A DNA stretch of 64,000 nt from Psilocybe cubensis. Lineage: Eukaryota. Below the pieces are notes generated by a model. The model had not been told where the DNA came from. It worked only from the letters and a program-made list of their open reading frames with translations, and searched no databases. Positions 1 to 27,879 of this stretch are shown in pieces (within the stretch, counting starts at the first letter, position 1; the number at the start of each line of letters is the position of its first letter). A program made the translations under genes and the position numbers. The stretch is from the NCBI GenBank assembly GCA_017499595.2, contig CM039005.1, forward strand, positions 2,542,001 through 2,606,000, read 5' to 3'.

Positions 1-1370
1 AGTGTCCTTGACCGTGTATTTTGTGCAATATAAGGTTTCTGTATTGGCGACTAAGCCTTCTCAGTTCCCAATAGCGGTTCAGAACCTTTTTGGGAAATGA
101 AGATGAGGTAATGCGTCTGAGCTTTTGATAATATTGATAGCCCAAGGTTTTGCATTCAAGGTTGGTAACCCTAAAATCCTCTAGCATGTCCAGTGTAAAC
201 AAGGTTCGGATATTCTGAAAACTAGTAGCAAAAAGACCCATTTCCAGATATTGCAAATCTAAAGGCAGCACGGCAGATTGGCAAGTACAAGTCCAAATGG
301 GTAGATAGTGTACTCCGGATGTATGAATAATAACTTTGAATGGGATACCGTCATTATCTTCTGCCCTTGGATGGGGTTGATCGTGGAAGCTTGTATCAAG
401 TTCTCCATACAAGTTGATATCCTCATTGTCTCCATCATCCAGTTCAAACAGAATTGGGATTTCAGGATCTGCAAAAAGCTGAGATGTGAAAGACTCTTTG
501 TCATTGTTTGCTGGGATTGGACCAATGTCATGAGTATCCGTAACTTTGGCGGCATCACGAGTCCCGCTCCTGTAGTATTCATTGGCGGCATCATGATTCC
601 CGCTCCTGCTATATTCATTGGCAGCAAGTGATGTGCCGCTCCAATAGTTGTTTTTAGCGGCAGATTGAATCCTGTTTCCAATATATCCTTCGGCTCCAAT
701 GCTTGTCCTGTGGGTACTCTTGTTTAAGGGCAATTTTACTGGACACTTCTTTCCATTATGACCAAGATACAACCTAATACCTACTTCCCATAAACCTCCA
801 GGACAAAAGTACTCCCCTGTCCATTTCTCGACTCGGTGAAATGGAACCAGTTGATGGTTTTGTCTCAGACAGTGAGGGCAAACAAGCTGAGATCTGAAAC
901 ATTCAAGGCATCTCTAACATTCCGGGAGTCTTTGGCATTGCTGGCATTGATTATCCCAACGCGGAGAAGGCGCCTCCCAGCCAATGAGTGTCCCGAGGTA
1001 TATTTCTCTTTTTGGAAGCCACTCTCTAAGGTAGTCATTTTGAGACTAAGATAATAATTTGTGAGCAAGAACATCTCAATATATTGACACAGATATACCT
1101 TTTCTCTTGTCCTAACATCCTGTAACTCTCTCAAGTTGTCAATTACCTGCTGGTCTGTCAGATCTTCCGGATAGTGAGGTATGTTTACTTCATCTATATT
1201 GTGTTCAAAGTGTTGTAACATGTTTTGGGCAGGTGGAGGAATAGAAGTGGAAGATTGGCTTGTATCAGGTCTATATTTCCTTGGCCTTCCTCTTTTCCTT
1301 CAAGCCCCAGAAGACCAGCTTGCCTCCTTGGGGCCGTTGCTATCTGATCCATTACCTGGCACAGTATGAA
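1..1370 (-). mobile_element. KDZ (Kyakuja-Dileera-Zisupton) transposase relic, CxC2-type N-terminal region; continues off the left edge
   Basis: Manual minus-strand translation gives RCLECFRSQLVCPHCLRQNHQLVPFHRVEKWTGEYFCPGGLWEVGIRLYLGHNGKKCP (about 735-915) and LEMGLFATSFQNIRTLFTLDMLEDF...YQYYQKLRRIT...NRYWELRRLSRQYRNL (about 1-260), both typical CxC2/KDZ motifs. An in-frame TAG near 916 indicates decay. The upstream boundary is approximate. Confidence 0.8.
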
Positions 1371-1708
1371 AGCCTATGGAAGTGGGAAGCAAAGTGTCTG
1401 AGCACCTGTGAATTTCATTCTAAATACAGTATTCCATTGATAGCTCTTCACCATGTGCATTAAATTTATTTTAGTCTACATAATCTTTTTGAGGGAAAAA
1501 ATAGCTTTCATATGACCTATCTTGCAAGAAATTTGGAGAACTGTAGCCAATTTTATGAACAAGTTTTATTTTAGATGTGCAGAAAATGGTTGTGATCCCA
1601 ACAGAAATGCATAATGTGATCTACATACAATGACCTTTCAAAACCACTCTCCTGAAGTATTTTGGCCATAACTCTCCATGCACATACTCCCTACTCCTCC
1701 GGCATATA

Positions 1709-4277
1709 CACTAGTACCTACCACTTTTTATGATAATACTTGGGCAATTACCCGCACACTTGTTTATATGGTGGGCACCTTTTTATGATATATATCATTA
1801 CTGCCCCAACCTATATCATATTACTGATATCAGTATTCTGCATCATTGCACTTAAAACCTATATCATAAAGACTTTATCATAGCTGCCCTAAGTCTGTAT
1901 CATTACTGTTTGAATCCGTATCATTAATTTTCCAAGCTCTATCATTAATTTTCCAAGCTGTATCATTAATCTTTAGAAGCTATATCATTCTTTTGTGGAT
2001 TACTTAATAAACTAATCTGATGTCATGGGCCCATTTTAGAATTAGGCTTTGGGCTATTATTGATGGACATGACATCATGCTCAATTAAAGTTCTAGGCTT
2101 TTTCCTGTGCCTTGGCCCCTGGGTTTATAAATAGTGCTCATCCTATGCTACTTTTGTGCATTGCTGGCAATGGATTGGGCGCTTTTGGGGGCATTTCTGG
2201 ACCATTTCTCTTGGTGTTTTTTGGTAGACCTATAATTTTAAGGTGTACCAATTCGAATCTGAAATCAGAATTACAATATCTGTACTCATTATTGCGCAAT
2301 TAAGCGTACAATATTTTGGTCAAAAAGCGCACCTTCAATAGCACCCTCCAGTGGTTGGTATGCATTTTTTTGACCATGCCATTATTTTTTATTTATGTCA
2401 AATAGGGTACATGCTAAGTTTTAGCTTAATTGGAGCAGTAGAACCTATTGAACTAGAATGTGCACCCTACCCCTCCTCCTACCCCTTGTATGAATGCCTT
2501 CCTGATCAGATAAATTCAGGCCCAACTCGGGCTGGCTAGGCGCCTATTATGCCAATTTTTAGAGCCTAAAATCTTGGTGCAATTCCAAGATTTAAGGGTA
2601 CTACCCCCTATCCTCTCCAGAATTTGTATATTTTATTATCACACAGGATGGGCTTTCAGACCATTAAAAACATGTAGATCTACTACTAACAGTACATAGA
2701 GTCCAAAATTTATTCTTGAAAGCCCTCTGCAGCAAGGAAACATACTGATTCAAGGGGGGTATGAGGAGTGGTATGGTAGCTTATTGATCAGGCCATATCT
2801 CTACCAATACTTTGTCATAAATCATATTCCTAATGTCTACAGATACCTATAAGTGTCTCCTAAATATCTTTCTCAGTGTCTAAAAAGACCCATCCATTAG
2901 ATGAGATACTGCAGAGAGAATACCATTCTTCATCAAAATGCACAGTATTTTTGCATTTACCATATATAAACATTCAAGATCAGGAAATATAAAAGCAGGA
3001 TAGTATAGCCCCAAAATGCAGCTTTCTAGAACATCAAGGATGTTGTGCATCGGACCAGTGATTGTTGAGATATGGAAAGAAAGGTGTTGAAGAACCCATT
3101 AGAGACCCGGAAGGATATTGGCCTTTATTTATGCTTTGCTTGTGGTCACCTCTTTGGCCTTTTACCTTCTTATTAGCCTCATAACCAAGGTGTTCCCCTT
3201 CATCCTGAATGTTTCAAAGATATGTATTATGTTTGTGGTACTATATAGAGCAGATTTACATATCTATATGTGCTGGGAATAGTCATTCTATCCCATAATA
3301 AAATACACAAGTTCTAGAGGGAGTGGGGGGTAGTACCCTTAAATCTTGAAGTTATACCAATATTTTGGGCTCTAAAAATTGGTATAATGGGCGCCTACCC
3401 TGCCCCAGTTGGGCCTAAATTTATCTAATCAGAAAGGCATTTATACAAGGGGTAGGAGGAGAGATAGGGTGCACATTCTAGTTCAATAGATTCCACTGCT
3501 CCAATTAAGCTGAAACTTGGCAAGTACTCTATCTAATATAAATAAAAAATAATGACATAGTCAGAAGGGTGCATACCAACCCCTGGAGGGTGCTATTCAA
3601 GGTACGCCTTTTGACCAAAACCTCGTACGCTTAATTGCACAATAATGAGTAAAGATATTGCAATTCTGATTTCAGATTCGGATTGCGACACCTTAAAACT
3701 ATAGGTCTACCAAAAAAAACCAAGGAAAACGGTCCAGAAATGCCCCCAAAAGCGCCCAATCCATTGCCAGCAATGCACAAAAGTAGCATAGGATGAGCAC
3801 TATTTATAAACCCAGGGGCCGAGGCAAAGGAAAAAGCCCAGGACCCTAATTGAGCATGATGTCATGTTTATCAATGATGGTCCAAAGCCTAATTCTAATC
3901 AGATCAATGACATCAAGATCATTTCATTAAGTAATCTAGAAAGAATGATGCAGCCATTAAGTAATCTAAAAAAGAATGATGTAGCTCTTGGACAATTAAT
4001 GATGCAGCTCCGGAAATTAATGATATAGCTTTAAAATCAATGATACAAGCTTTGGGCAGCTATGATACAGATTTGGGTGGCTATGATATAAACTTTGGGC
4101 AGCTATGATACAGATTTAGGCGGCTATGATACAGATTTGGGCAGCTATGATACAGATTTATGATACAGCTTGGCCTATAATGATATATATTTTGCATCTA
4201 AAAAAGGTGGGCACCATATAAACAGGTGTGCAGGGCAAGTGCTCAAGTTATATTAAATAAAGTGGTAGGTACTAGTG
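1709..4277. mobile_element. Foldback-like non-autonomous DNA element with about 0.9-kb diverged inverted arms and CACTAG...CTAGTG termini
   Basis: cactagtacctaccact at 1709 is the reverse complement of agtggtaggtactagtg ending at 4277. Arms 1709-~2640 and ~3290-4277 align in inverted orientation (e.g. 2110-2280 vs 3660-3830). No credible ORF. Flanks are ata/aga, so there is no perfect TSD. Confidence 0.8.
4040..4170. repeat. Subterminal tandem repeat of about 20 bp (gctatgatacagatttgggca-like); diverged inverted counterpart at about 1790-1990
   Basis: Five to six consecutive gctatgatac/tatgatat units are directly visible. Confidence 0.85.
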
Positions 4278-4870
4278 AGAAAACCACTTCTTGGCGGATT
4301 CACCTCTACCTACATCAACTAAATAGGCAGTAGATTACAATGCTATGTAAACCAATACAATAAATTTTTGGTCTTACAAATCCACCCAATTTTTGGGGCC
4401 CGGTTTACATTGTCAAGCAATATCTTTATTAACTTTACAATATCCAAACAATTATTTGTTTTATCCTGCAAATTCAAGTAAGAATTTTTGTATGTTTATA
4501 ACAAGTCCGGTTGACCGGCCATTACATAACTGGTCGATATAGGGGCCGTATGTCTTGGCCCGGCGCGTGTGTTAAATATAATATATGATTGCTCATTTGA
4601 AGTTTCACACACGGTAAGCGTTGTATTTCCATATGTATACATAAAATAAATACGCTAATCCATTAAAAACTCGTCAATATCAAGCTCATCGTCGACGACA
4701 ATGACCAAAATGGGTGTGGCAAAGCGCGCCGCAGTCGTCAACGATGGCAGCGTGCTTTTTTTTTTCAACACTACCACCACAACCACCACAACCAAAACCC
4801 GCCACAGTACGCCAGCAACTCGTCACCACCATCATATAACAGCATCAGCAGAGTTAACAGAAGAGTACAT

Positions 4871-5262
4871 ATGGATGAGCAAGGTGAGTCTTCAATATTC
4901 AAAGTAAGTACTCACTGTTAATTTTTTTTGCACTCCCAGGAGTACAATTTGGCCTCGTGATTGATCACGACGGCCTCAGGCTCAACGTCACCGTTGATGG
5001 CCACAACGGGCATACCAAAATTGGTGTCAATGTTGATACCGACAACAAGATTGAGATAGTGTTCAGCGTCGACAAGCCAGCGACCGGGCGAGTCCATACC
5101 AACCCTGTCGCTTCAACCAACGGCCAAATTCGAGAGGGGCAGGAAGCTGGGCAGCCGGTTGTTGCTGTTGAGAATCGTATCAAGGCATCAAGGACCATTG
5201 AAGCCAGGGACGTCGAGATACGCAATGGGGAGGGGGATGATCAGGACATTGAGATGGAGTAA
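4871..5262 (+). CDS. Small hypothetical protein (about 111 aa, 2 exons)
   Basis: ATG at 4871 and intron 4884-4939 (GTGAGT...CTCAC...CAG) splice in frame into ORF 4957-5262: MDEQGVQFGLVIDHDGLRLNVTVDG... Confidence 0.5.
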
Positions 5263-5930: not shown

Positions 5931-8926
5931 TATACGTTCCCACTCCCCATATATTCATGAGAAGGCGACAAAGACATGACGCCAAACTCTGAATAGTGAG
6001 GATGTGGGGGTGGGGACACATATGAGCTTGTCCTGTAGTTCTGGTTCTGGGTTGAAGGAGGCGGAAACTGTGATTGAGGGCGTGGGTACGCGTATGGGTG
6101 TAGATATTGTTGTAGAGTATGCGGATGTGAATGCAATGGAATGTGGTGACTTGAGTGCGAGTTTGGTTGAGATTATGAATGCGAATATAGGCAAGTTACA
6201 ATAAAATTTTAGTTAAATATCAATACACTTCCTTACCAAATCACGTGAAAATCAAGAAAAGGTACATGTATTACTTGCCAAGACAAGGATACATCTAAAA
6301 AGGTGTTAGTAGAGGTACAAGAAAATTTACAACAGACTTACATAAAGCTATAGTTAGTATTCAGTGAACCCAAGTTCATCGAGGTTACCTCGGTCCTTAT
6401 CCTCATCGCTCTCCTCCTCCTCCTCCTCTTCAGAATTGGTATGCTGGTTGCTGTTGTCTTCATTGTCATCAGAATTGGCGCTGTTTTCAGGTGCCACTTC
6501 AGCCTGGTCCTAAGTGTCGTGCTCCTAGTCTGAGGCCCCATCTGGTTCCAGATCAGGATCAGGTGCTTCATGTGCCTCGCGGCGCTTTTTGCGAGAGGCA
6601 ATGTCATCTGCACGTCAGTCTTGCCTAAGAGAATCGGTAGCGGCTCGCGTGCTAGCATGGGCAACTCCACCCCCTCTGTACAGCATGACCATGTCGCGAT
6701 CCACAAAACTGTAAAAAATTAGTAAAGGGTAAGAAGTGACTAAATGTACTCACAAATTGACATAATATCTCTCCCATTCTTCCCCTTCATTATTTTCTTT
6801 GCTTCTATAAGCTACAGATGGGCCGAGAGTTGGTATTTTTCCAAGATTAAAGTGAGGGATCAAATGGGTTGCACAAATTACGAGGAATGGGTCCACAAAA
6901 CCAAATGACGCAGAGTCATTGATATCACCAAACGCCAACTGTGGAAGCCTTCTATATTTCCAACCGTAATGGCAATCTTCACAATCACCAAGCCATCAGA
7001 CATGAAGAAAATCCACTTTGTGCTTGGAGGCACGGTAGTAATCATCAGGAGTAGATATTACCACATTGGCGTGGTAGATTCCAATGATACGGGCATACTA
7101 ATAAGGATGAACCTGCTGATCTGCATCTTTGTTGCTAGCAAGTACCATGATGTCACATTGGGAAGAGTTTGGCTTCAAGGTATCTTGTATTTGACGCATA
7201 TCATATGAGGTATAGTTGATGCGTAAAACCTGATGTTCGTAAATTTGGTCACCGAGTATAGTGATTTGGAGTCACTCATGGGTACCAATACTATCACTGA
7301 ATTTGTTTGCCCCTGTTAAGCAGGCATAAAAGTGAGTTTTGAGACAAAGCATAAAGCCCTAAATATGACATTGAGTATATAAAAACAAGCAAAACATTCA
7401 GCTTACCCTTGTTGCCGGATCGTTTTGGTTTTGTGACATCCAGAGTAGTATTTCTAACTTTTGACGCACATCTGATGAGATGTGATAATGTAAATCAGGA
7501 GGAGTGGGCTCCAGTAACTCCCTGTCCTCACGCAGCAGCTTGCGCATCTCGACACGGTTAGTGCGGTGTACCACACGTTCTTGATAGATGTGTTTGGCAA
7601 TACCTCGAATATGATCACCTTTCTTGACCCGTTTGTAGAAGAGTTTCGCTCTCTTGTGCTCGCTTTTGCCCATCTGAGTGCTTATGCCGTTGGTAGTGCC
7701 AAATTGGCGAATAGAATTGACGTAATCGGGAAGGGAATGCAATTTGTACGTTTGCATATTGAACGTGCGGGTCTTGGGTTCATTGGATTGAGTCGGAGGT
7801 ACTGGCAGACCCGCACTTGCTGCCTTTTTGGCCTTGGCTGCCTGTCTTCTTCCTCTCGCGGCTGTTTCTGATGGAAGCTTGCGAGTGGCGTACTGACTAC
7901 AAACCTCCTTTTAGAACTGACGAAGGAGATCACATAACTGAGTACACAAATTCCCCAACTTGTCCAGAGTGGTATCGGTGTGAAGTCGAAGCTTGGCTAG
8001 GGCGTGCCATGTCGCCATTTCAAACAAGAGGTTTTGAATAATTTTATTGTGTGCAGGTTCTGGCAACAAGCCCTCAAAGACTGGTATAGAGCACTATTAT
8101 GGAATCATTAATAATTAAAATCAAACATCACATGCAATTGAGGCCTACCTGAAGGAGATCTTCAAAATCCCATGCTGCCAGTTTCTTCATATCTGAAGCA
8201 TTCCTAGCAAAACGTCGGATAGTTGTGAGGCCAAAAGGGGAGACTTGGCGGTATCTAAATCTATAGTTAGTTTGAGTAAGAATCGAGATATCACGACAAT
8301 ACCTTTTGTTCAGAGTTGCAATGGCGTTCTGGTTGCTAGAGGTATAAAGAATCCGGAGTAGGTAACTAAATAGGGCCTTCCAGACACCCAGTTCCACTTC
8401 GTGCATGAAGTCAACAGTAAACATCCGATAAAAGTTGAAGCCATATTCAAATAAAGCCTTGGAAAAAGTGTTCTATGTAATATTCTTAGACAAAATATAT
8501 AGATATGAGGAAATAAAAATATACCCGAGTTGGAAAAGCAGAGGTCTGTTGCAGCAAGCCATTAACCACCTTGCTGTTAACCTTTTTCCCCAAGAACAAT
8601 GCTTTACGGGCAGTTTTGATGTCAAATTGACGAGTTTTGCTGTCAACGCGAGCTAACTTGAGCCGGTTTTGCATATCCATCTTTGATCCAACCTTTGGGA
8701 CATTCATAGTCTGAATTAAACAACGTGGACACAAGCAAGTGCCACGACACTTGCAGCAGGACTGCAGGATTCTGCTTGTACATTAGTTATCAATCGAAAT
8801 AGCGAGTAGAAGTAGTCATTTGAACTAAAAATAAAACGGAAATACATAGCTTGACATACTCTGGCGGCCAGTTCTACGGCCTCTCCTTCAGCATATGCTC
8901 GTTTGACATCCTCATCAAGTAATAGC

Positions 8927-9217
8927 TGTTAAAGATGTTAAGTAGCTTTCGCCATTCTTATGGCGTATCATTAGCTATCACGTGTTCTCATTCTGCACCC
9001 TGTTATCTTCTAAATCTTTCCATCTTCGCACCTCAGTCCGTTATATATACGCAAACGGCTGAGGTACGTTCATCTTGTTTGTTCTATGTTATTTACAATG
9101 TTTTCTGATACCTATGTAGACGCATACTTGCGTGTATTATAGGTACTGTTAAATTCTAGTCCGTTATATATACGCAAACGGCTGAGACGCATACTTGCGT
9201 GTATTATAGATTTATCA
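8927..9217 (+). repeat. Copia-1 5' LTR (291 bp) with internal A-intron-B / AB duplication
   Basis: Direct repeat of 14020-14310. A = agtccgttatatatacgcaaacggctgag (9035-9063, 9158-9186). B = acgcatacttgcgtgtattatag (9120-9142, 9187-9209). Confidence 0.97.
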
Positions 9218-9230
9218 GGTTATGGGCCCC
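9218..9230 (+). other. Primer-binding site of the half-tRNA-iMet type (Drosophila copia/Ty5, Hemivirus-like)
   Basis: GGTTATGGGCCC lies immediately 3' of the LTR and is complementary to the tRNA-iMet anticodon arm rather than the CCA end. Confidence 0.9.
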
Positions 9231-9377
9231 GCTTGCGCGATCTAACCCCACTCAAAAGAATCTACGGACTCAGAAGCTCTCATATCAGCTTCCTCAACCC
9301 CATAGGCAGCCGGATCCCACGCGATCTACGCAGATCTCCACATTGATCAATTCACGCCATAGCACCACCAAGCAAAC

Positions 9378-12300
9378 ATGTTGTCCAAAGACGTCACCGC
9401 TTGCCCCGTTCTTGAGAACGCGAAAGACTTTCAGATATGGCAAATACGCATTATCGGAAAGCTAAAAAGGGAAAAGGTTTATGATGTTATCACCAATCCT
9501 CGAGTGGATTCCTCATCCATCACAAATCCCAGCATCTATCCCTCTACTACATTCCTTGCTACTCATGTTGATTCATGGGAAGTTAGAGACGGAAAAGCAC
9601 ACGGCATTATCACAGATCACATTTCCGATCGCCTTGCTCTTGCTACCCAAAACGAGCGCACCGCAGCTGAGCTGTATGCCAAACTAGTGGATCTCCATCA
9701 AAACCAGAACGTTGGCGCCAGCGCATTTTACATGTTCATCAGTATGCTAGAGAGAAGTGGGACGGCGATCCAGAGACCGTTCAAGACCATATCTCCTCCC
9801 TCGCTGCCGGAGACTCAAAACTTGTGGCCATGAAAAAACCAATCGACTCCGAATTCCTTGGTTTCCTTCTTCTCCACTCTCTTCCTGACGACCCTGTCTG
9901 GGAAATGTTCAAAACTTCCATCCTGAACGCCATGCCTAAAGACTCAAAGATCACCTTTTCTGATATCGCTGACCGGCTTGTATTCAACGCCATGCGGCAG
10001 CAAGGCACTGAATCAGCTATGAAAGCAAAGGCCATGACGTCGAAGGGAAAGGTGTCAAAGCACAAACCAAATGCGCCAAAGACTGAGCGCTTCTGCTCCT
10101 TCCACAAGTCTAACAGTCACAACACTGAAGACTGTAACGCATTGAAGAAAAGGGGCAAGCACAAAACAAAACCAAAGGAGCGGGGAAAGGATTCAGCGAA
10201 CCGCAGCAGTCACGATTCAAGTGATTCATCATCATCTGAATCTGACTCTGGGTCCGACACCAAAAGCGCACATTTTTCAGTTAATACATCTCATGTAAAA
10301 GTTTCAAAGTCTTTAATGTCACGCGTTCAAGCCTACTGCACCTCCACTAAGAAAACAAAAACTCTCCAAACAGTAGTTTTAGACTCTGGTGCCTCAACAC
10401 ACATGACGCCTCGGAGAGACTGGTTTGTGCCAAATGCCTTCAAAACCTTAAATCCCCCAAGACTCGTACGATTTGGCGATGAGTCAGGAGTGCCAGCAAC
10501 AGGCATAGGAAATGTCATTCTGCATCAAACCATCAATGGAAAGGAAGTTGAAGTAACTGTCCGGAATGTACTTTATGTTCCAGCTTTCACACTCACACTC
10601 CTTTCCGTTCGACGTTTCAACAAAGCCGGGTTCTACTCAACCTTTAAGGGAGAAGACTGCACTGTCAAATCAATTGTGACAAAGCGCAAAATATTAAAAG
10701 GGAGAATTAGGAAAGGCCTTTACCGAATTGATTGCAAAGTTGAACCTCACAAACATATGACTCCAAGGTCGGACGCAAATGACAGAAGAAACGAGTCTGC
10801 GCATACAACAATTGACATAAACGTTCTGCACCGCCGGATGGGTCACGTTGCAATCCCTTGACTAAAGAAGATGGTTGATGACGGACACATATCTGGCATA
10901 AACAAAACAACCGGGAAGGCAAAGTTTTGTGAACCATGTGCAATGGGAAAGATGAAAAAGCTGCCATTCACTCACGAGGGGCACCGAGCAACTCGCCCAC
11001 TCCAGATCATTCACTCGGATGTTGGCGGCCCTGTTCTACTACAGGACAGGCACGGGCACAGATATTGGATCACCTTCATTGATGATTTCAAGCGAATGCC
11101 CTGGGTTTACTTCATGAAAAAGAAATCAGAGGCGATCGAAATCTTCAAACGATGGAAATCAGAAGTACGAGCCTTATTCAAAGTTGACATCGAGGAGATC
11201 CATATCTCCAAAAACTTTCTAAGTTTCTTCCAAAGTGACGGAGGCGGCGAGTACACTTCAAAGCAGTTTGAGAAGGAACTCAAAAGCAGCGGAACTGTCC
11301 ATCTTACAACTGCCGCAGACACGCCTGAGCAAAACGGCCTAGCTGAAAGGATGAATCAGACTTTAGTGACACTCTCCACAACAATGCTTGCAGACTCAAA
11401 CCTTGCAAAATCATACTGGTCCGACGCAATGGCCACAGCGGCTTTCATGATGGCAAGACTCCCAGGCCCTGACCAAGGCGGAGAATCCCTATTCAAGGGG
11501 CTATTCAAACTGGACGTTGATGTATCGTGGTTTCGACCATTTGGAAGTACTGGCTATGCACTCATACCAAAAGAAATGCGAACCGGGAAGTTTTCTTCTA
11601 AAGCTCGCAAATGCATCTTGCTCGGATATACAAGTGGAAAGAAAGCATACCGATTACTAGACCCAAAAACCAAAGCTGTCTTCCATAGTCGGCATGTCAA
11701 GTTTGACGAATCAAACAGCAAGACCTCCCGCACTGTTGAGCTTTGTGACGTTCAAGGCGAGTCAGACCCCATCCAATGGGGATCAGAGTCAATTGATGGA
11801 TACTTCCACCCACTCTCAAAGCCAGGAAATAGAAAAGGCAAAGACAGTAGAAGCTTGTCAGACGGTGAATCGGATGACGACACACCATTTGATAACTCAC
11901 CAAACACACATCACAATGCCGAATTCACTCCAACCAAATCATCTCAAACGCCCCCACGCACCTCTCAGTCGACTTCGAGTACACCCCCTCGAAAGACAGA
12001 GAATGCTAACCCGCCAGCGGCTCCAAAGAAACGTTTGAAAAAAATCTGGGTGCCTGATCCAAGCTCTGTGGCAGTCAGCCGACCACGAAGAACTGGGACA
12101 GGAAGTCAAAATCGTTTCTCAGTACTTGAAAACAATGACGACTCACCTGAAGACAAGTCAAGCAGCCAGCGTCAAGATAGTGGGAGTGCTGCACTCCCAA
12201 GCAACAATCCTAATCGCCAAGTGAGTGGGAGCAGTTCAAACACGTGAGATGCAAGCCGTACAAATGAAGGCACCGGGGAAAACATGTCAACGCCACAGCC

Positions 12301-14038
12301 ACAGGAAATTTCCTCCGATGACGTCAATGACGACGATGACACATTCTTTGCCGGCCTTGCAAACACCAGACCAGATTTCGCGCTGAACAACACCTCGACG
12401 CCTGCAACGACGAAGGAAGCATTCTCAGGCCCTGACAAGGCAAAGTGGGAGGCGGCATTGGAAGATGAACTTCGCAGTCTGAGAGATAATGATGTGTACG
12501 ACGTTGTGCCAATCCCAACACACACAAAGCCAATCACCTCAAAGATTGTTATGCGAATAAAACTTGACAGCAACGGAAACGTTGAACGGCATAAAATTCG
12601 CATTGTCGCCAGAGGTTACTCTCAAAAGGAAGGAATCGACTACAAAGAGGTTTTTGCTCCCGTAGCAAACCTTGAGTCAATCCGGGTCATTGTCGCCCTT
12701 GCAGCCAAATATGATCTAGAGTTGGATCAAATGGACGTGTCAACCGCATACCTCAATGGAGAATTAGTTGAAGAGTTATACCTCATGCCGCCTCCTGAGG
12801 TTGAGATACCATCAGGACATTGCTGGCGACTTAAACGATCACTTTACGGACTAAAGCAGGCAGGACGAACCTGGAACCACACGCTCGACAAGAAGCTCAA
12901 GTCAATGAATTTTGTTCGCCTCAATGCCGAGACATGTCTTTACATATACCGTGAACCAAACGGCGAGGTCTGCTTCCTAGTGGTATATGTCGATGATTTT
13001 ATTCTAGCAGCGACCTCTCGACCATTTATGAATAAAGTCAAGACCATGCTCTCCGGCGCCTTCAAAATGAAAGACTTAGGCCCTGCTTCGTACATACTTG
13101 GCATACAGCTAATACGTGATCGTAAGAATTGAACGATTTCCCTTTCTCAATCTCAATACTGCAAAACAGTTGTTGACCGATGTGGAATGAAAGATTCAAA
13201 ACCCATGTGGACCCCAATGGCACCCGGCGTCCACCTTATGGCTGAAGACCCGACTCCAGACGCCGACAACTCAATCAGATTTGAGATGGAAATTAATGGG
13301 AAGACAGTGTCGTACGCCAGCGCCATAGGATCCCTTGGATACGCAGTTGCAGGCACGCGCCCAGATCTCGCATACACCGTGGGTGTGTTGGGTCGCTTCA
13401 GCTCATGTCCCAAGCTTCACCACTGGAAAGCCGTCAAACGAGCTCTCCGATATCTAAACACTACGTCAGATATGGTATTACGCTACGATGGACGTGATAT
13501 CGGCTTAGACATGGATTTCAAGCTTCACAATGACTTCACGTTTGAAGGATTCAGTGATGCAGACTGGTCAGGCGACTCCGACACATCAAAATCCACTTTG
13601 GGCTTCTGTTTCATCACAGCACAGGGAGCAATTGGATGGGCCAGCAAGCTCCAGTCAATGGTTGCCCTCTCTTCTACAGAATCTGAATATATAGGTTTGT
13701 GCAATGCCGCACAACACCTAGTCTGGCTACGTACCTTTTTCGAAGATATTGACAAGAAACAAAAGGATCCAACAAAGCTTCACTGCAACAATCAGTCAGT
13801 GATCATTCTATCTAAGGACGCACAATTCCGTGCGCGAACAAAGCACATCCAAAGAAAGTATCATTTCATACGTGATGATGTTGTTGCCAGAGGACAAGCC
13901 TCCATTATCTATATCCCTACAGAAGACATGGTTGCCGACATTCTCACAAAATCTCTATCACGCGACAAACATTGGAAGTTTATGAAGGCTCTAGGTCTCC
14001 GCCTGAACACGAGTGGGAGTGTTAAAGATGTTAAGTAG
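9378..14038 (+). pseudogene. Copia-1 gag-pol polyprotein with one frameshift (about 9750) and three in-frame TGA stops
   Basis: ORFs 9824-10861, 10871-12247, 12284-13132 and 13187-14038 are all in one frame; ORF 9378-9833 joins it by a frameshift. Confidence 0.93.
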
Positions 14039-14310
14039 CTTTCGCCATTCTTATGGCGTATCATTAGCTATTACGTGTTCTCATTCTGCGCCCTGTTATC
14101 TTTTAAATCTTTCCATCTTCGCACCTCAGTCCGTTATATATACGCAAACGGCTGAGGTACGTTCATCTTGTTTGTTCTATGTTATTTACAATGTTTTCTG
14201 ATACCTATGTAGACGCATACTTGCGTGTATTATAGGTACTGTTAAATTCTAGTCCGTTATATATACGCAAACGGCTGAGACGCATACTTGCGTGTATTAT
14301 AGATTTATCA
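14020..14310 (+). repeat. Copia-1 3' LTR
   Basis: Copy of 8927-9217, preceded by the PPT and followed by TSD ATAGC. Confidence 0.97.
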
Positions 14311-15199
14311 ATAGCCCCCAGACACCTGTATTGACCTTGCGTCTCATATGGGTGAGCATTTCAGATGTCGCAGCTTTGCCAAACTGTTGCTGATGCCAAT
14401 CTTGAAAAGTGTCTGTGAGCTATGACCCAAACATTAATATGAATAGTACATGCCAGTCAATACAAACTTACTTTAGGGATATACGCAATATGGTGTGCAG
14501 CGAATTCTTTAGGTTTTCTTCTGGTGTATTTTGACTGGTTGAAGATATACATAAGGATCGGCCATATAGAAGCATCGCCAAAACTGGTCAGGTGGATAGA
14601 GTCTGAAAAGATCCTGATACCAACGACAAAGGGCTCCAGGTGTCTGTGGAGACCTGTGCATGGCTCTGACTTGATCTTTTCATACTCTTCATTGAAAATG
14701 TCCGCCATGTAGGACTCTGAGAATAAGTGTTTGGGTGGTTTGTTGGGTGAGGGACGCCAAAATTCTCTGTACGGTATGGTCGTATACGTCTCAGAGGTGC
14801 ATTCTGCAAAGGCCTGTTTGATAACTTCTAGAGGTTTTTAATACATGACGTTTTCAACAACAAATTGAGGAGCCTTTTCTTCCAACTCGAATATGAAACT
14901 GTCGCATGGCACTGGTATTGAAAAGCTGCCCTTGATCCACCCAGCTTCCGGTTGACACACTTCTGACAAAGTAGGATCTGTAGAATTTTTTTGGGTGGAG
15001 ATTTTGTCCAGACGCGCTGCCTCTTGAGCAGTAGAAAAGGAGGAATCAAAGTTCTTGGGGTCAAAATCCGGGTCCAGTACGACTTGGTGAATCAATTTGT
15101 CAGTATCAGCGTAGGATTTAGTACCGTGGCTGTTGTAAAACCAAGACATGATAAGTTGAGTAGAACAATTTTTAAAAACTGATAGGAAAATGCTCATGT

Positions 15200-18100
15200 A
15201 TATGGCTACTCAAGTGGGGAAATATTCCCTATAAATATATTTTCCTTATTTTTGAAAAGTGCATCAAGAATGAAACAAAATTTGTTGGCAAAAATATTTG
15301 TTTGGTGCATGGATTGCTTTTTGGCCTATCTTGATGTTGCCATGAACACAATTGGCTGTGCAAAAACATATTTCAAGCATAATTTGCAAGTGCTAGTGCA
15401 TTATTTCTTCCCCAAAATATATTTAATGTGTAAATTACATGCACATAAGTATATTTTGTCTACTGAACAAACCTTTTACAGTGGGCAAAAAAACCGTTTG
15501 AGTATTGGTCACGTATGAAAAGATTAATTTATAACTTTGAAATTAAAAATGTTAAAAATATGAGATTATTCACAGATATACTATATGGTGTTAGCTAAAG
15601 GATGACACACTGATCATGTGATTTATCCAAGAATTGACCAAACAGCAGCATACACAATTTGCTAAGTCATTCGAACAGTTTTTTTGCTAGTAATTTAAAT
15701 GCTATAAACTATGTATTATCACATGACTTTGTTGATATACCAAACAACTATCAATAAAATCATGTGACTACATGTTGAATAGGTATATAATAGCTACAAC
15801 CAATCTCTTTATCCCCCCAATCAAGCATGAAACCCCTCTTTAAAGCAACCATTGCTACTATTGTCTCTCTTCTTACTTCTGGTCACTTTTATGCCTCTAT
15901 CAAGGCCCAGACTGGAGCTAGTGCTGGTTCTATCACCAAGATTTGCCAAGACTACTGTCCTGAGGCAGTGGTTTCCCATGGAGGACGCCCAAAGAAGCTG
16001 ACTAGTGCCAATATCACCTATACCAAGTGTGGAATTCGAACTGAACAAATCAAGAATGCTGTGCAAGCTGCCAAGTCTCTGGCTACTATTAATGGCCAGA
16101 ATATCAGTCCTCAAACAGTTAGGAATGCACTCAAATCAACTGGCATGGTCTCAGTGGCAAAACAAAAGAAGCCTTTGTTATCAAAAAAGCATAAGAGGGC
16201 TAGATTGGAGTTTGCAGAAAGGCACTTGGAGTGGACTGTGGATGAGTGGATGACTGGGCAAGGGTCTGGTGGTCAGATGAAACCAAAATCAACAGATTGG
16301 GTTCAGATGGCAGAGATCAGGTGTGGATAGACAAGGAAAACAGACAGGACCCCAGGAGGATCAAGTAAACTGTGAAGTTTGGAGGAGGAAACTTAATGAT
16401 GTGGGGTTGTATGGGATGGGAAGGAATTAGATTTCCTACTAGAATTGATGGGAAGATGGATGCTCAGTTATACACTGAGATCCTAGGTGATGAGCTCCTA
16501 AAATTCTTGGAGTGGTATGATCAATAGGTAGAAGATATCCACTTTCAGCAAGACAATGACCCCAAGCACACCTCAAAATTGGCCAAGAAATGGTTTGAAG
16601 AGCAGAATTTTAGGGTTCTCATATGGCCTGCACAATCTCCAGATCTCAACCCCATTGAACATCTATGGGAATACCTCAAAAGAAGACTTAATGAACATGA
16701 AGTCCCACCAAAGGGTATCCATGAACTTTGGAAGAGGGTTGAGAATGAATGGAATGGAATACCCAAGGAAGTGGTGCAGAATTTGATTGCTAGCATGCCT
16801 AGAAGGTGTGCAGCAGTGATTAAGGCCAAGGGTGGACATACAAAGTACTAGTAGATATGATTTATTGATACTCAAGTGTTTAGCAAAAAAACTGTTCAAA
16901 TGACTTAGCAAATTGTGTATGCTGCTGTTTGGTCAATTCTTGGACAAATCACATGATCAGTGTGTCATCCTTTAGCTAACACCATATAGTATATCCGTAA
17001 ATAATCTCATATTTTTAACATTTTTAATTTCAAAATTATAAATTAATCTTTTTATACGTGACCAACACTCAAACGGTTTTTTTGCCCACTGTATCTTTGG
17101 ATGCAAAAACAATAATCTTTCAAAACATATGTCAGTTACAAATATTAGTACCAATATACAAATACCTTTGATATATCTTCATACTTTGTTCCATCTGTGA
17201 ACTCTCCTGCTGATTTCATAAGTGTTTTGAAGTGATTAAGCCCACTCCAATGCGGAATTTCGTCTACTCTAAAATTATCAAAATAAGCGCCCAAGCATAC
17301 TAGTGATAATTATAGAGTACAATTATACCTTTTGTCAACGAGTGCTGCAGTTTTTTTACCTAGATTGTTTACAATCTTCTGGTACTCCTCCCATAAGTGA
17401 TCAGAAAATACACCTCTATGGTTGTTGTGTAAGCGGTCAAATAATAGAGCTTCATAAATGTCAGTGTTCTGGATTTGTTGGAAGACATTCTGTGAAAAAT
17501 TTTGGCATTAATCAACGAGTTTATTGTCCAGTATAATGTCAATACATACCTCTACGTTGCGCAAACCATACATCTGCAGAAGCTTATCTGCATCTGTTTT
17601 GTTTAATTCCTAAGCTTCATCAAATATGTTTCCCATTTCTTTAGCTGATCGTAAGGGATATATTGTTGTAAGATCAGTGAGATTTTGATGTGGCACAAGA
17701 CATCTAGGGCAAGGAAAATTACTGTTTGTACCACGAATTAACGCCATAACACATCTAAAAGCTTGTGGTCAATAGATTTATAGTTTGGCTATCAAATAAG
17801 TGACGTACTGCTCCTCATAATCAGCCGATAAAATTAGTATCACAGGGTATATCCATTGTTGAAAGTCCTTTTGAGAGAAATAGAACCCAGTTTTTGCATG
17901 ATCTACTAGACTTTGGATGATTTCATAGAAGGATTTGTGCCAAACAACCCATTTAAAGTTGACAAATCCTTTTTTACCTGTTTCCCCTGCATTTTCCTCA
18001 ATCTGTATATGATATAGTTTTCTTTAGATTTGTAAAGGCTTAAAAAAAGAAATATATTAATCACTTACAATCGGTAATAAGCCTACAACTCTACCACCAC

Positions 18101-18981
18101 CTACACCTTCACCATTTCGCAGATTTATAGGGAGATTTCCACATCGAGCCATGACTGGATATCCCTTTTGTGTTCCAAATGAGGATAACCATGTTTTATC
18201 AGCATACAAAATTATGCACAGTAGTCCTGCACTATCGGGTAGCTTTGACTATTAACAAAGGTAATAGAAGTTATAGTATTTTTCTTTTTAAAGCATGTAT
18301 ACTACTTACCTGTGCTTTCCACCATGCATTTCCAGTCCACGGCTCATCAATAAATCGCTTCCACCTTTGGGCGCTAGCATCAAATTTGTAATGCCGCTCC
18401 GCATCCCATTTGAATTTAGGTGCAAGAGTTGGATTTTCTAATAAGCTTAAGCACCAGTCCCAAATTGGACAAAAAGCGAGATCAAAGCTGTTCTCTTCAC
18501 CTTTGTATGGAACTGTAATAGTCCAAGTAGAAAACTAGACAACATTGTCTGATTAATATAATAATCTCTCAAGTAAAAAATAATTTAAACATACTCCTTG
18601 AGCCTTAAGCACTTGTGCATGTTCCCAACAGGCTTCAAGATCCTTTCTATCCTTGATTGTAAAAGTGCCCGGGTCTTTTATACATTGGTGAATAATTGAT
18701 AAGAGTGTGGAAGATTGGGATGAATTTAAATGCGAGTCATGCATGAACTCTGCAAGCTCAAAGTCAAGGCGAGTATGGAATGGAAGCCATGGTTTCCTAT
18801 CCACATTCTTAGGCTTAGTCTCTGGGAGTGTTGATTTGTAGTCCTCAAAATGGAAGATCTCTTCAACCCGTTTGGATTTCGGATGGTATTCAATCTTTAT
18901 ATCATCAGCGACGGCTTGTATTAGTATGTTTTCATCCTCACCCCCACCGTCATGATGATCTGAGCTTATATTCTGATCTGA
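15200..18981 (-). mobile_element. Second, divergent Plavaka-type transposase relic, interrupted by Tc1 copy 1 and truncated at its 5' end by Tc1 copy 2
   Basis: [18 protein letters not shown] (about 18740-18800), RFIDEPWTGNAWWKAQ (about 18310-18360), YADKTWLSSFGTQKGYPVMARCGNLP (about 18130-18210), SADYEEQ and NFPCPRCLVP (about 17690-17830). The left boundary is approximate. Confidence 0.8.
15479..17091 (+). mobile_element. Tc1/mariner (DD34E) DNA transposon, full length (1,613 bp), transposase disrupted
   Basis: TA TSD at 15477-78 and 17092-93. TIRs of about 211 bp start with CAGTGGGCAAAAAAACCG. Motifs WSDETK and FQQDNDPKH...SPDLNPIE with 34 residues between D and E. Lesions: 8-bp duplication gtggatga near 16240, stops near 16366 and 16525. 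Confidence 0.97.
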
Positions 18982-20235
18982 AACCCTCTCCCAAAGTTCA
19001 TGGATACCCTTTGGTGGGACTTCATGTTTATTAAGTCTTCTTTTGAGGTATTCCCATAGATGTTCAATGGGGTTGAGATCTGGAGATTGTGCAGGCCATA
19101 TGAGGACCCTAAAATTCTGCTCTTCAAACCATTTCTTAGCCAATTTTGAGGTGTGCTTGGGGTCATTGTCTTGCTGAAAGTGGATATCTTCTACCTGTTG
19201 ACTATACTACTCCAAGGATTTTAGGAGCTCATCACCTAGGATCTCAGTATATAACTGAGCATCCATCTTTCCATCAATTCTAGTGGCAAATCCAATTCCT
19301 TTCCATCCTATACAACCCCATATCATCAAGTTTCCTCCTCCAAACTTCACAGTTTGCTTGATCCTCCTGGGGTCCTGTCTGTTTTCCTTGTCTATCCACA
19401 CCTGATTTCTGCCATCTGAACCCAATCTGTTGATTTTGGTCTTATCTGACCACCAGACCCTTGCCCAGTCATCCACAGTCCACTCCAAATGCCTTTCTGC
19501 AAACTCCAATCTAGCCCTCCTATGCTTTTTTGATAACAAAGGCTTCTTTTGTTTTGCCACTGAGACCATGCCAATTGATTTGAGTGCATTCCTAACTGTT
19601 TGAGGACTGATATTCTGGCCCATTAATAGTAGCCAGAGACTTGGCAGCTTGCATAGCATTCTTGATTTGTCCAGTTCGAATTCCACACTTGGTATAGGTG
19701 ATATTGGCACCAGTCAGCTTCTTTGAGTGTCTTCCATGGGAAACCACTGCCTCAGGATAGTAGTCTTGGCGAATCTTGGTGATAAAACCAGCACTAGCTC
19801 CAGTCTGGGCCTTGATAGAGGCATAGGAGTGACCAGAAGTAAGAAGGGAGACAATAGTAGCAATGGTTGCTTTAGAGAGGGGTTTCATGCTTGATTGGGG
19901 GGATAAAGAGGTTGGTTGTAGCTATTATATACCTATTCAACATGTAGTCACATGATTTTATTGATAGTTGTTTGGTATATCAACAAAGTCATGTGATAAT
20001 ACATAGTTATAGCATTTAAATTACTAGCAAAAAAACTGTTCGAATGACTTAGCAAATTGTGTATGCTGCTGTTTGGTCAATTCTTGGACAAATCACATGA
20101 TCAGTGTTTCATCCTTTAGCTAACACCATATAGTATACCTGTGAATAATCTCATATTTTTAACATTTTTAATTTCAAAGTTATAAATTAATCTTTTCATA
20201 CGTGACCAACACTCGAACGGTTTTTTTGCCCACTG
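18982..20235 (-). mobile_element. Second copy of the same Tc1 family, inverted and 3'-truncated
   Basis: One TIR ending gcccactg|TA at 20235. Transposase fragments 19592-19888, 19207-19710 and 18982-19143 are nearly identical to copy 1. Homology stops at 18982. Confidence 0.95.
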
Positions 20236-22981: not shown

Positions 22982-25900
22982 TGTTGGAATGATAGTCGGC
23001 GAGCGACTTCGTTGCTAAGTCATTATCTTTCTATTGTAGTTATCTTATCATATTTTTCTAGATCATTCTACTACAGGTTCCGTAGCTACTGTAGGTACAG
23101 GTGTATAGTTACGTCGTGAACATAGATACCTTTCACCACTGCGCATTTTACTTACAACAGGTTATGGGCCCCGAGAGGTCATAACTAAAGCTCGCTTTGT
23201 TCTAAACTCGTTCTATTCTTATCGATCTATATCTAAACTTGTACTCGACGTCAAATGGCTGACTCGACAACCGCGGAAGTCAACATCGGCGGATATTGCA
23301 TTGACACACTGAAGGCCCACAATTGGATGCCGTGGAAGCGGCGCATGCTAGCAGTACTGGTGGACCTCGGACTGGAGAAATACGTGGACGGCACGTCGCT
23401 TCGACCAGGATCAGCGAAACCGAACGCACCCACGGCGGAAGAAATCGCAGCTCAGACAGCGTGGGATAAGGGAGATGCGAAAGCGCGATGCAGGATCGAA
23501 CTCGCGTTAAGCGATGCGGAGATGGTACACGTCCTGGGAGCGCGCACGGCGCGCGAGATGTGGACACAGTTGTGCACAGTGAAGGAATCCAAGGGACGAC
23601 TCGGTGTTTTGGCGACACGACGAGCACTTTTCCGGGCAACCGCAGAGGAGGGATGCGACATGGCAGAGCACATCGCAAAGCTACGTCAATTCCAGGAGGA
23701 GCTGCACATCATGGGCAGCATTGTTTCGGACGAAGATTTCGTCATGATTTTGCTCACCTCGTTGCCGGAATCTTGGGAGAATTATGCGTCATCCTTTTTG
23801 GGCTCGAGCGGGAATCGTCCTACGCTCACTTCGCAAGAGCTCGTTGGTGTTCTCCTTGAAGAAGCTCGTCGTCGGAAGGAGCGTGGAGGTGATGGTGCCG
23901 GAGGGACTACGCTTCAAGTTCGTGGAGGTCAAGGGTCGTCGGATGGAAAGGGTAATGGTTCGAGGGATGGCAGCGGCGGGAAGGAGTGCTATAATTGCCA
24001 CAAGATGGGGCACATTTCGAAGGATTGCTGGGCGAAGGGCGGAGGTCGTGAAGGAAAGGGTCCGAGGGGGCGGAAGACGAAGAATAGAGGGCGGACGAAT
24101 CAGGCTCGGGAGGACGTCAACACTACGCTCAACGATGAGGTTGCGTACCACACGTACTCGACGTCGAACTTTTCTTGTTACGACTGGATTTACGATTCTG
24201 CAACCACCAGTCACGTTTGTCCCGTCCGTGAAGCCTTCATCGAGTATACGCCACTCGTTAATTCCTCCGTTCGTGGTGTCGGAAAGAGTCCAGCTATCAT
24301 TGCAGGCCGCGGAACAGTCATCCTCAACTTCGATGTCGACGGGCAGATGATTACTCATCGTTTGAAAGACGTTTTACACATCCCTGAAGCCGAAAATGCT
24401 TTGATGTCGCTCGGAAGGTTTGAGAGGGATGGGAGGAGCTCGTCGTTTAAGAATGGGAAGGTTCTTTTGATGGATGCGAAGGATAAGGTTATTGGAAAAG
24501 GGTCGAAACGCGGTCAGATGTATATTCTTCACGCTCGCGCTCAGCTTAATTCAGGGGAACAGGTCAACTACGTCTCGCCGAAACTCACCTGGGATCAATG
24601 GCATCGTCGTTTTGGCCATATCTCAGTGTCGTCGTTGCAGAAACTCGTCCGGAACGATCTCGTCGTTGGTCTTTCCGTGGACGAAACGTCTATTCCATCC
24701 CCATCGTGCGAGGCGTGCATCCAAGCAAAGCAGACGCATAAACCTTTCCCTGGAGAAGCAGAAAATCGATCCACGGTTCCTGGAGAGCGAACCATGAGCG
24801 ACGTATGGGGTCCTATCGGAACACGCTCGGTAAATGGATTTTATTACTACATTACGTTTATGGACGACGCGAAGCGATACAACGGCGTGGTTTTCTTGAA
24901 GGACAAGAAGGAGGCGGCGAAGGCGATTGAGAATCATGGGGAGCGAGTGAAGAGGAGGTTTGGGCAGTATCCGAGGTATATTCGCATGGACAATGGCAAG
25001 GAACTTGTGAACGAGCGGATTAAGAAGTGGGCAGCGGAGAGAGGCATTGAAATCGAGACGACAGCGCCATATTCCCCATCTCAGAACGGCGTCGCAGAGC
25101 GCTACAATCGTACGCTGTTGGAGCTAGCACGTGCGATGATTATTGCGAAGAATTTACCTCTCTTTCTCTGGGACGAAGCGGTCAATTACGCAAATTATTT
25201 ACGCAACCGCGCGCCTACTCGAGCACTCGACGACAAGACACCATATGAAGGCTGGCACAATAAGAAACCGGATGTTTCTCACCTTCGGGAGTTCGGATGC
25301 GATGTATGGGTGTTAGACGAGACGAAGGGGCTTTCGAAGCTCAAGCCACGGTTGAAGAAGAAGGTATTCGTTGGTTTTAATGAAGGCTCGAAGTCTGTGC
25401 GTTATTACGATCCCAAATCGCGCACAGTGAAGTCATCGCGAAACGTATCGTTTAACGAAAACGAAACGCCGCAGAACGTCAAAATTCCTGGATTATCGTC
25501 TGAGGGGGAGCGTAACGAATCGACAGACGTTAAATCCAGCGAAAACGAGCCAGAAACCGTCAAGAACAAACCTATTTCGTCTACAGCATCGATTCCACAG
25601 CCCAGCATACGTCGATCAGCTCGTGAACACAATTTCATCGATTACAAGAAGGCAAACAACCCGAATGCTCGTTTACCGACTACACGATCCCAAACAACTC
25701 CAAACGCACCACAAATCGCTACAAAATCGACCGAGACCTCGAGCGCAAAGTCTACAGCAACGGAGCAAGCAAACGTTGTCAAAGAACAGCTGTGGGGCGC
25801 AATTTTAGACGATTCGGAACGTGTATTTGCCATGCGCGAATCGGACGTACCTCGGACACTTGAAGAAGCTTTGGAAAGCTGTGAGGCAGCTGCGTGGAAG

Positions 25901-27605: not shown

Positions 27606-27879
27606 TGTACGTGTCATTTAGACTAGAAAATCATAGCGTGGAACACGGGCCATTTAGCCTAAATGGCCCTGCCACCTATCTAGCTCGGAAAAAGAACATT
27701 CCGTGAGCCTGGCAACACGGACAAATACTGTTCCGTGTTTTTGATTATTTTTGAATGCATGAAAGACCAATGACTTTGATGCATAATACCAATATCTTAC
27801 ATATGTATATTCAATGTTTATAATGTTTTGTTACTCAGTGAGAGACTAAATATTGACAGCTTGATTATACTTTGGCGGA

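Follow-up and report, generated by a model that had tools for sequence, protein, structure and literature searches.

How could a retroelement keep introns in its leader when reverse transcription normally strips introns from what it copies? This question is raised by a Ty1/copia element that spans positions 8927-14310 (5,384 bp) of a 64-kb stretch of the Psilocybe cubensis genome (contig CM039005.1, positions 2,542,001 to 2,606,000 of the forward strand), hereafter called the window. The DNA alone suggests here a concrete and testable way for a retroelement to carry introns through reverse transcription. Each long terminal repeat (LTR) of the element may hold a leader with two introns together with a copy of that leader's own spliced product, resembling complementary DNA (cDNA), and with it a regenerating mechanism, a reading that we judge to be evenly poised between right and wrong. 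In a more general form, a fungal Copia clade would routinely replicate from RNA with a fully spliced leader, and would keep its two introns by means of a cDNA of exons 1 and 2 that is hidden in intron 2 and rewritten in each such cycle. For this, we put the chances slightly short of even.

Behind its first 108 nt, each LTR reads as a 29-nt segment (A), 56 nt, a 23-nt segment (B), a 15-nt spacer, a 52-nt segment (AB), and an 8-nt tail, which in the 5' LTR is followed directly by the primer-binding site (PBS). A plus B equals AB letter for letter, so that each LTR contains a split copy (A1 and B1) and a joined copy (A2B2) of the same sequence (Table 1). The 3' LTR is identical to the 5' LTR across the whole part from A to the tail; the three differences between the LTRs (3/291, at 8979, 8997, and 9010) are all transitions and all lie in the first 108 nt, upstream of A.

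The 56 nt that separate A1 from B1 have the features of an intron. Fungal introns run from GT to AG, with a GTRNGT-like donor, a CTRAY branch site 10-30 nt before a YAG acceptor, and a length of about 50-60 nt. The segment at 9064-9119 agrees with this consensus in donor (GTACGT), branch site (CTGAT, with the branch-site A 12 nt before the end), acceptor (TAG), and length. To its right, the interval 9143-9209 (67 nt), which comprises the spacer and the joined copy, is also bounded by GT and AG. A sequence-only reading of this DNA had claimed the exact order of A, intron, B, and AB in both LTRs, the canonical donor, branch site, acceptor, and length of the 56-nt segment, and a second GT..AG interval with a weaker GTACTG donor; all of these were found, at the coordinates that it gave.

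How often such a segment would arise by chance was estimated from all 127,888 windows of 56 nt in the 64 kb, both strands included. GT..AG ends were present in 427; of these, 32 start with GTNNGT, 14 also end in YAG, and 3 also have CTRAY 5-35 nt from the end. Two of these three are the two LTR copies. This bears on an origin without any splicing, in which a tandem duplication would have been followed by slippage, or by deletion or insertion of 56 nt at an AG microhomology. The cut does show a 2-nt AG microhomology: three placements of it give the same AB, and one of them is GT..AG. Against such an origin stand the full intron motif at the cut and a second family, described below, in which a GT..AG segment of 56 nt occupies the corresponding position and the joined copy is again exact; we find it scarcely credible.

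In the standard LTR cycle, the region unique to the RNA 3' end (U3) is derived from that end, while the terminal repeat (R) and the region unique to the 5' end (U5) are derived from the strong-stop DNA copied at the 5' end. In our preferred reading, transcription would start at the first base of A1 (9035), and the leader would consist of A1, intron 1 (56 nt), the micro-exon B1, intron 2 (67 nt, spacer plus A2B2), and the tail, leading into the PBS and gag. Full splicing would yield A-B-tail-PBS, which would be colinear with the distal end of the LTR (A2B2-tail). Minus-strand strong-stop DNA made from this spliced leader could then anneal to the A2B2-tail stretch that stays unspliced at the RNA 3' end; the stretch available for pairing, joined copy plus tail, would be 60 nt in the window (and 72 nt in the relative L001, below). 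Extension through the spacer, B1, intron 1, A1, and U3 would give a progeny LTR that regains both introns and in which the joined copy has been rewritten from the split copy, whereas unspliced RNA would hand on the layout unchanged. The boundaries of the repeat would thereby acquire a meaning, the left edge corresponding to the 5' end of the RNA, the inner joint to splice junction 1, and the right edge to splice junction 2. Where transcription starts, that both introns are spliced, that polyadenylation falls at or after the tail, that spliced RNA is the template, and that the element benefits are all inferences of ours.

A protein scan of metagenome contigs with a piece of the reverse transcriptase (RT) of the window element gave 23 loci. 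The best of these, L001, is 65% identical to the window element in RT and 52% identical over Pol (609/1167). The contig is 5,042 nt long and its ends overlap by 99 nt; it is a cycle of one LTR and the internal part, the form to which assembly is expected to reduce an element with two identical LTRs. Open frames are present for gag (517-1296) and pol (1314-4823), and the element is intact. These two genes lie in different frames in L001; gag of the window element shares the pol frame in its C-terminal part, and only its N-terminal part is shifted. L001 shares with the window element the junction of polypurine tract (PPT) and LTR start (GAGTGGGAG followed by TGTTAAA) and the PBS type. Its LTR has the same layout, with segments named X and Y in place of A and B. 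X and Y resemble A and B at their ends only, and their lengths differ (40 against 29 nt and 15 against 23 nt), yet the joined copy is exact in each element. The global MAFFT alignment of the two LTRs is poor because the exon lengths differ, and conserved islands were therefore read segment by segment. These are CCTCAGTC at the left edge of the split copy, CTGAG/GTA, TGTAG/, and AG/GTA after the micro-exon (the slash marks the joint), the last three standing at splice-site positions, and all of them lie where the preferred reading would require them. The second interval has its GT and AG ends, with AG/GTA at its left joint, in both elements. L001 shows the layout in an intact element and across families.

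The comparison of the two elements also bears on the strength of their donors. The first intron of L001 has a donor, GTATTT, that is weaker than that of the window and has no G at +5. The equality of joined copy and predicted spliced product in two families is an indirect trace of intron removal. Since the joined copy suggests that this intron is removed nonetheless, equally weak donors of the second intron would not be disqualifying.

Copies of the family were sought in public sequencing runs, 6 of 14 of which contain the element, none of the six being on record as RNA; four DNA runs were mapped on 8600-9900, while two runs guessed to be RNA held next to none of the element's words. X6, a run with the same species label from another study, carries a copy behind a different flank, from which it follows that the family has moved. 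Compared with the window, the X6 copy has 11 differences in 739 internal positions, all of them transitions, and an LTR contig (8927-9192) with three differences from the window's 5' LTR, one in U3 (8997) and two in intron 1 (9069 and 9095). The base at 8997 is G in X6, as it is in the 3' LTR of the window. No change is seen in A1, B1, the spacer, or A2. One X6 contig leaves the LTR six bases into B2 (behind 9192) and enters unrelated sequence; it may represent a truncated or interrupted LTR.

A more diverged relative of the LTR was found in X8, raw reads from another strain that is without the element itself. Among the matches listed, B1 of this relative is changed at 9128, 9135, and 9136 in 11/11 reads, and B2 has the same letters at the matching positions 9195, 9202, and 9203 in 21/21 reads. 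Its spacer is homologous to that of the window but altered (at 9147 and 9151, and by small insertions after 9156), a stretch containing C and G stands in place of the TATATA core of A2, and five reads reach the intron at 9069. In X8, the diverged LTR is followed behind 9217 by the reverse complement of the LTR start (9 nt) and not by a PBS; it may be a solo LTR that lies nested within another, inverted one.

Within each element the split and joined copies are identical, and between elements they differ, which means that they must be homogenised or re-made. The X8 relative speaks for homogenising inside a single lineage, since its spacer is homologous to that of the window and yet its two B copies co-vary. 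We take the layout to be a conserved family feature in which split and joined copies co-evolve, which fits rewriting of the joined copy from spliced leader RNA.

The same observations weigh on a different account, in which the clade would simply have a two-intron leader and the joined copy would be a recurrent accident. Spliced strong-stop DNA would have primed by microhomology within intron 2 of the 3' R, independently and recently in the window element and in L001, and the product would have neither maintenance nor function. Only a few lineages have been seen, and the spacers of the window (15 nt) and L001 (6 nt) are not clearly homologous, as such an account would have it. On the other hand, the X8 relative has a homologous spacer and yet co-varying B copies, the layout has passed through at least one transposition (it is in both window LTRs and, at another locus, in X6), and L001 is an intact element. 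We regard independent accidents as quite unlikely.

The position of the transcription start is central to the preferred reading, in which A1 is the first exon. In both elements, CCTCAGTC, which we take to be an initiator-like pattern, stands at the left edge of the split copy, with a CT-rich tract before it and an AT-rich block about 25 nt upstream. In L001, the block is TATTATTT, at a distance that matches the AT-rich block of the window. This arrangement fits a start near 9035. Alternatively, transcription could start at or after the joined copy (about 9158), so that the split copy would be promoter DNA within a statically duplicated U3, and the joined copy would have arisen once from spliced read-through RNA and been inherited since. 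This would be the simplest fit to the standard U3-R-U5 scheme, and the window offers it two possible signals: a strong TATATATA in A1 and CTAGTCC at 9156-9162, which is also initiator-like. Within the window alone, the identity of the copies cannot speak against it, as the two LTRs differ by only 1%. A static duplication has no homogenising step, however, and yet the window element and L001 each have an exact joined copy of exons that are wholly different in the two. B1 and B2 of X8 also share three changes although the spacer is homologous to that of the window, and no TATA-like block stands 25-30 nt upstream of the joined copy in L001. For these reasons, a static duplication of this kind seems to us unlikely. 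Read as a TATA box, TATATATA in A would set the start downstream of A1; we considered this reading and gave it less weight, because the motif is absent from X of L001 and from the X8 relative and is thus lineage-specific, rather than a conserved promoter box that sets the start downstream.

The only other route that we found by which the two copies could be homogenised involves a single intron. Intron 1 alone would be spliced, with the spacer and joined copy left in the leader, the A1B1 end of the strong-stop DNA would land out of register on A2B2 of the 3' R and add a joined copy, and template switching would delete one. Co-variation would then be accounted for without the weak donors GTACTG and GTAATA, and deletion between direct repeats during reverse transcription is well known. 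Such a process should also lose intron 1 often and give rise to elements in which the joined copy is present at least twice, whereas a single joined copy was found in the window's two LTRs, in X6, and in L001. It further leaves unexplained why AG/GTA is conserved after the micro-exon and why the joined copy ends exactly at that AG. We consider it unlikely that one intron suffices. The two-intron route would keep intron 1 and rewrite the joined copy at a fixed copy number.

Protection of the introns by this route would be partial. We worked through the combinations of isoforms by reasoning, without computation. An unspliced 5' leader would pass on the layout whatever the state of the 3' end, and a doubly spliced 5' leader together with an unspliced 3' LTR would rebuild it, with the joined copy rewritten. 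A doubly spliced leader combined with a spliced 3' LTR would instead give an intron-less LTR. Were the leader spliced at intron 1 only, intron 1 would be lost or a joined copy added; were it spliced at intron 2 only, the joined copy would be lost. The sequence-only reading had called the LTR a candidate for being splicing-proof, which holds for splicing of the 5' leader and is overstated for RNA that is also spliced in the 3' LTR. Of its strong-stop model, the predicted co-evolution of split and joined copies is seen in L001 and X8, and X6 keeps the layout. Its proposal that introns could be kept indefinitely is unwarranted, because splicing of the 3' LTR would remove them. Its expectation of a fixed architecture, rather than a one-off fossil, agrees with the conservation of the layout in L001 (52% Pol identity, other exon letters), in the X8 relative, and in the X6 copy.

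Several points weigh against the two-intron reading. The proposed start site, splice junctions, poly(A) site, and spliced template are all read from DNA. In a system of short introns, where splicing proceeds by intron definition, the 3' LTR copy should splice as readily as the 5' copy and so erase the layout. The donor of intron 2 is weak in both elements (GTACTG in the window and GTAATA in L001, each without G at +5), and CTGAG is all that resembles a branch site there. With TATATATA as promoter in A1 of the window, transcription could begin within intron 1. The window copy is dead, with three stops and one frame break, and it is the sole copy in its genome; L001 comes from a single metagenome contig, closed on itself by its 99-nt overlap; and the X8 evidence consists of 11-21 short reads, again among the matches listed, with the relative's A1 lying outside them. 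Finally, only two or three lineages are known, and the layout may have originated independently in both families.

The window and the 23 loci were scanned on both strands for split repeats with a microhomology of at most 4 nt. This strict scan gave 14 split repeats, of which three, namely the two window LTRs and L001, allow a GT..AG placement of the cut. Under loose settings (29 loci), the fraction was 3/141, again only these LTRs. By our own estimate, chance would give about 1-2 GT..AG placements in a set of 141, which also counts against the case made here. Its strength lies in the long exact copies beside the PBS and not in the loose-scan count. By exact-run scans and reading, the layout is absent from three more distant Copia lineages with the same PBS type, namely a second Copia element in the window and the loci L003 and L008; most other loci are too short to contain an LTR and hence are uninformative on the layout. 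An exact-pattern scan of metagenome contigs for the joined A/B junction gave 0 matches, and a protein scan of viral contigs gave no relative; a 16-nt pattern of the PPT and LTR start had four matches in viral contigs, presumed to be due to chance. Contigs of prokaryote genomes held only two distant Copia fragments (43-45% identity), in one metagenome-assembled genome (MAG). These fragments (L028 and L029) encode Copia RT on contigs binned in an uncultured Sideroxydans MAG, and probably reflect eukaryotic contamination of the bin.

Folding of the spliced leaders revealed no structure beyond that of shuffled sequences (z = 0.12 for the window and -1.37 for L001). An origin of the LTR from a small-RNA gene was also considered and is not supported, as Rfam gave no match in 8850-9400 at E values up to 1.

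The element that carries this layout is a Ty1/copia LTR retrotransposon (Pseudoviridae), as seen from its LTRs with target-site duplications, its domain order, and its PBS and PPT. Pfam matches over 9378-13129 follow the Copia order, with integrase before RT: Retrotran_gag_2, Pol_BBD, rve with SH3_retrovirus, and RVT_2. The last piece of pol, where RNase H is expected, had no Pfam match. The PBS motif GGTTATGGGCCCC also follows the LTRs of L001, L003, L008, and the second Copia element of the window. No tRNA gene was found in the 64-kb window, and hence none for this PBS, whose pairing was judged by type; half-tRNA priming occurs in copia and Ty5 (PMC5371799). Within gag the coding frame breaks once, near 9800, and TGA interrupts the frame at 10859, 12245, and 13130. 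Two of the three stops fall at sites where L001 has arginine. These stops, and the finding that the LTR and X6 differences are all transitions, suggest that the repeats have decayed from C to T, in a way that may be methylation-linked or resemble repeat-induced point mutation. In X1, the reads of the source assembly, the LTR has a depth of 96 and the internal part one of 46, about twofold, which indicates that the element is single-copy there; no further copy of the family was found in the rest of the window.

Table 1 Features of the Copia element of the window and of the L001 LTR (ORF, open reading frame)
Feature	Position	Strand	Description
5' target-site duplication, ATAGC	8922-8926	+	Identical 5 nt at 14311-14315
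5' LTR, 291 bp, TG...CA	8927-9217	+	Direct repeat of 14020-14310, 288/291 identical
Putative U3	8927-9034	+	AT-rich TAAAT block at 9011-9015 (about -24 of 9035), CT-rich tract, then CCTCAGTC; putative function
A1, putative exon 1	9035-9063	+	Exact copy at 9158-9186; the repeat begins at its first base, which is also where transcription putatively starts
Putative intron 1, 56 nt	9064-9119	+	GTACGT...CTGAT...TAG; removal yields AB exactly
B1, putative 23-nt micro-exon	9120-9142	+	Exact copy at 9187-9209
Spacer, 15 nt	9143-9157	+	Between B1 and AB
Putative intron 2, 67 nt	9143-9209	+	GTACTG...TAG; spacer and joined copy; putatively spliced
A2B2, joined intron-free copy of A1 and B1	9158-9209	+	A plus B equals AB; proposed landing site of strong-stop DNA
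LTR tail, ATTTATCA	9210-9217	+	Final 8 nt of the LTR, ahead of the PBS; putative end of R / U5
Primer-binding site, GGTTATGGGCCCC	9218-9230	+	Directly 3' of the LTR; type that pairs with the anticodon stem-loop of initiator tRNA-Met
gag-pol, degenerate	9378-14038	+	From ORF list, translation, and Pfam
Polypurine tract, GAGTGGGAG	14011-14019	+	Directly 5' of the 3' LTR; identical in L001 and L003
3' LTR	14020-14310	+	Same parts as the 5' LTR
Parts of the 3' LTR	A1 14128-14156; intron 14157-14212; B1 14213-14235; spacer 14236-14250; AB 14251-14302; tail 14303-14310	+	
3' target-site duplication, ATAGC	14311-14315	+	Matches 8922-8926
L001 LTR, 280 nt, proximal part	X 4894-4933; GT..AG segment 4934-4989		U3 91 nt; X 40 nt; GT..AG segment 56 nt; Y 15 nt; spacer 6 nt
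L001 LTR, distal part			Exact copy of X plus Y, 55 nt; tail 17 nt; then PBS

The element sits in a host repeat of about ten-fold depth (8600-8926 and from 14311 onward), and reads and contigs of all four mapped runs show empty sites of it, joining at 8926. Open reading frames nearby carry domains of Tc1/mariner type, HTH_Tnp_Tc3_2 at 15794-16327 and DDE_3 on the minus strand at 18556-19206. The second Copia element lies at 22982-27608 and has long gag-pol open reading frames between LTRs of about 178-181 bp, at 22982-23162 and 27428-27608, that are 99% identical. A PBS of the type found in the first element lies at 23160, its RT is 40% identical to that of the first element, and its LTR is without a split and joined repeat. 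Just after it lie arrays of a 189-nt tandem repeat (27885-28941, five copies; 30857-31459, three copies), which gave many spurious split-repeat matches. Further along, the minus strand carries an open frame of 1,929 aa (45903-51689) with PAS_9 and PAS_3, whose nearest Atlas cluster is mostly from Basidiomycota; for the RT, the Atlas gave no taxon.

Full-text literature searches, supplementary files aside, gave no earlier description of an intron accompanied by its spliced copy in an LTR; we rate the element as a Copia element with a previously undescribed LTR organisation. If the two-intron reading is true, it would show a new way round the removal of introns by reverse transcription, and spliced messenger RNA could template the replication of an LTR element. 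The LTR would then record in its own DNA where its transcription starts and where its RNA is spliced, readable from genomes alone, and would offer a natural design for intron-carrying retro-vectors in fungi. It would also explain the upkeep of introns in fungi that need them for expression. Possible benefits to the element are intron-dependent expression and the removal of three upstream ATGs that lie inside intron 1. In excerpts of work on basidiomycetes, introns are described as needed for expression in Armillaria (PMC4935854) and in Cryptococcus (PMC3744415).

Among known systems, a likeness in function is seen in Penelope of Drosophila virilis. As far as the available part of that account goes, this element has a 75-bp leader intron 46 bp after the start that is needed for expression and kept through transposition, with splice sites conserved in relatives of 67% identity; how some retroelements keep such leader introns is left there as an open point, and the same part describes neither an explanation of intron upkeep nor an intron-free copy beside the intron (PMC2377424). 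The likeness ends with the keeping of a short leader intron by a retroelement. Penelope-like elements have a telomerase-like RT fused to a GIY-YIG endonuclease and neither an integrase nor a tRNA-primed LTR cycle, whereas the window element encodes rve and RVT_2. Spliced transcripts contained within LTRs, often with three exons and a short middle one, are described for maize LTR retrotransposons in the consulted portion of a 2026 preprint, which calls them the first evidence of introns in LTRs (PMC13192763). The maize introns are long (mean 1303 bp) and the transcripts are read as non-coding RNAs, and that portion proposes no intron-free copy and no role in replication (PMC13192763).

The window element has in common with DIRS elements only a concept. 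This likeness is confined to the idea of a pre-joined copy, as the DIRS bridge joins the termini of the element and not exons, and no splicing is involved. The internal complementary region of DIRS elements is such a pre-joined copy, thought to serve as template or bridge from which the ends are rebuilt in reverse transcription. DIRS elements have a tyrosine recombinase and inverted or split repeats, in contrast to the direct LTRs and DDE integrase (rve) found here. Tandem repeats in U3, that is, duplications of enhancers or promoters, change in number by template switching. In a plain repeat of this kind, copies of one unit follow each other head to tail. The repeat of the window element differs from these in that 56 nt with intron ends interrupt one copy, while the other is uninterrupted and equals the spliced form, and the number of joined copies is fixed at one in all LTRs seen.

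Splice signals in or beside the terminal redundancy are also a feature of those retroviral and LTR-retrotransposon leaders in which the major splice donor lies after the PBS, or in R in the type represented by human T-cell leukaemia virus type 1 and bovine leukaemia virus, and in which unspliced RNA serves as the genome. These systems avoid the loss of introns by packaging unspliced RNA only, or by having no acceptor in the LTR. The window element, unlike these, has a whole intron, and probably two, inside the LTR, with the spliced copy adjoining.

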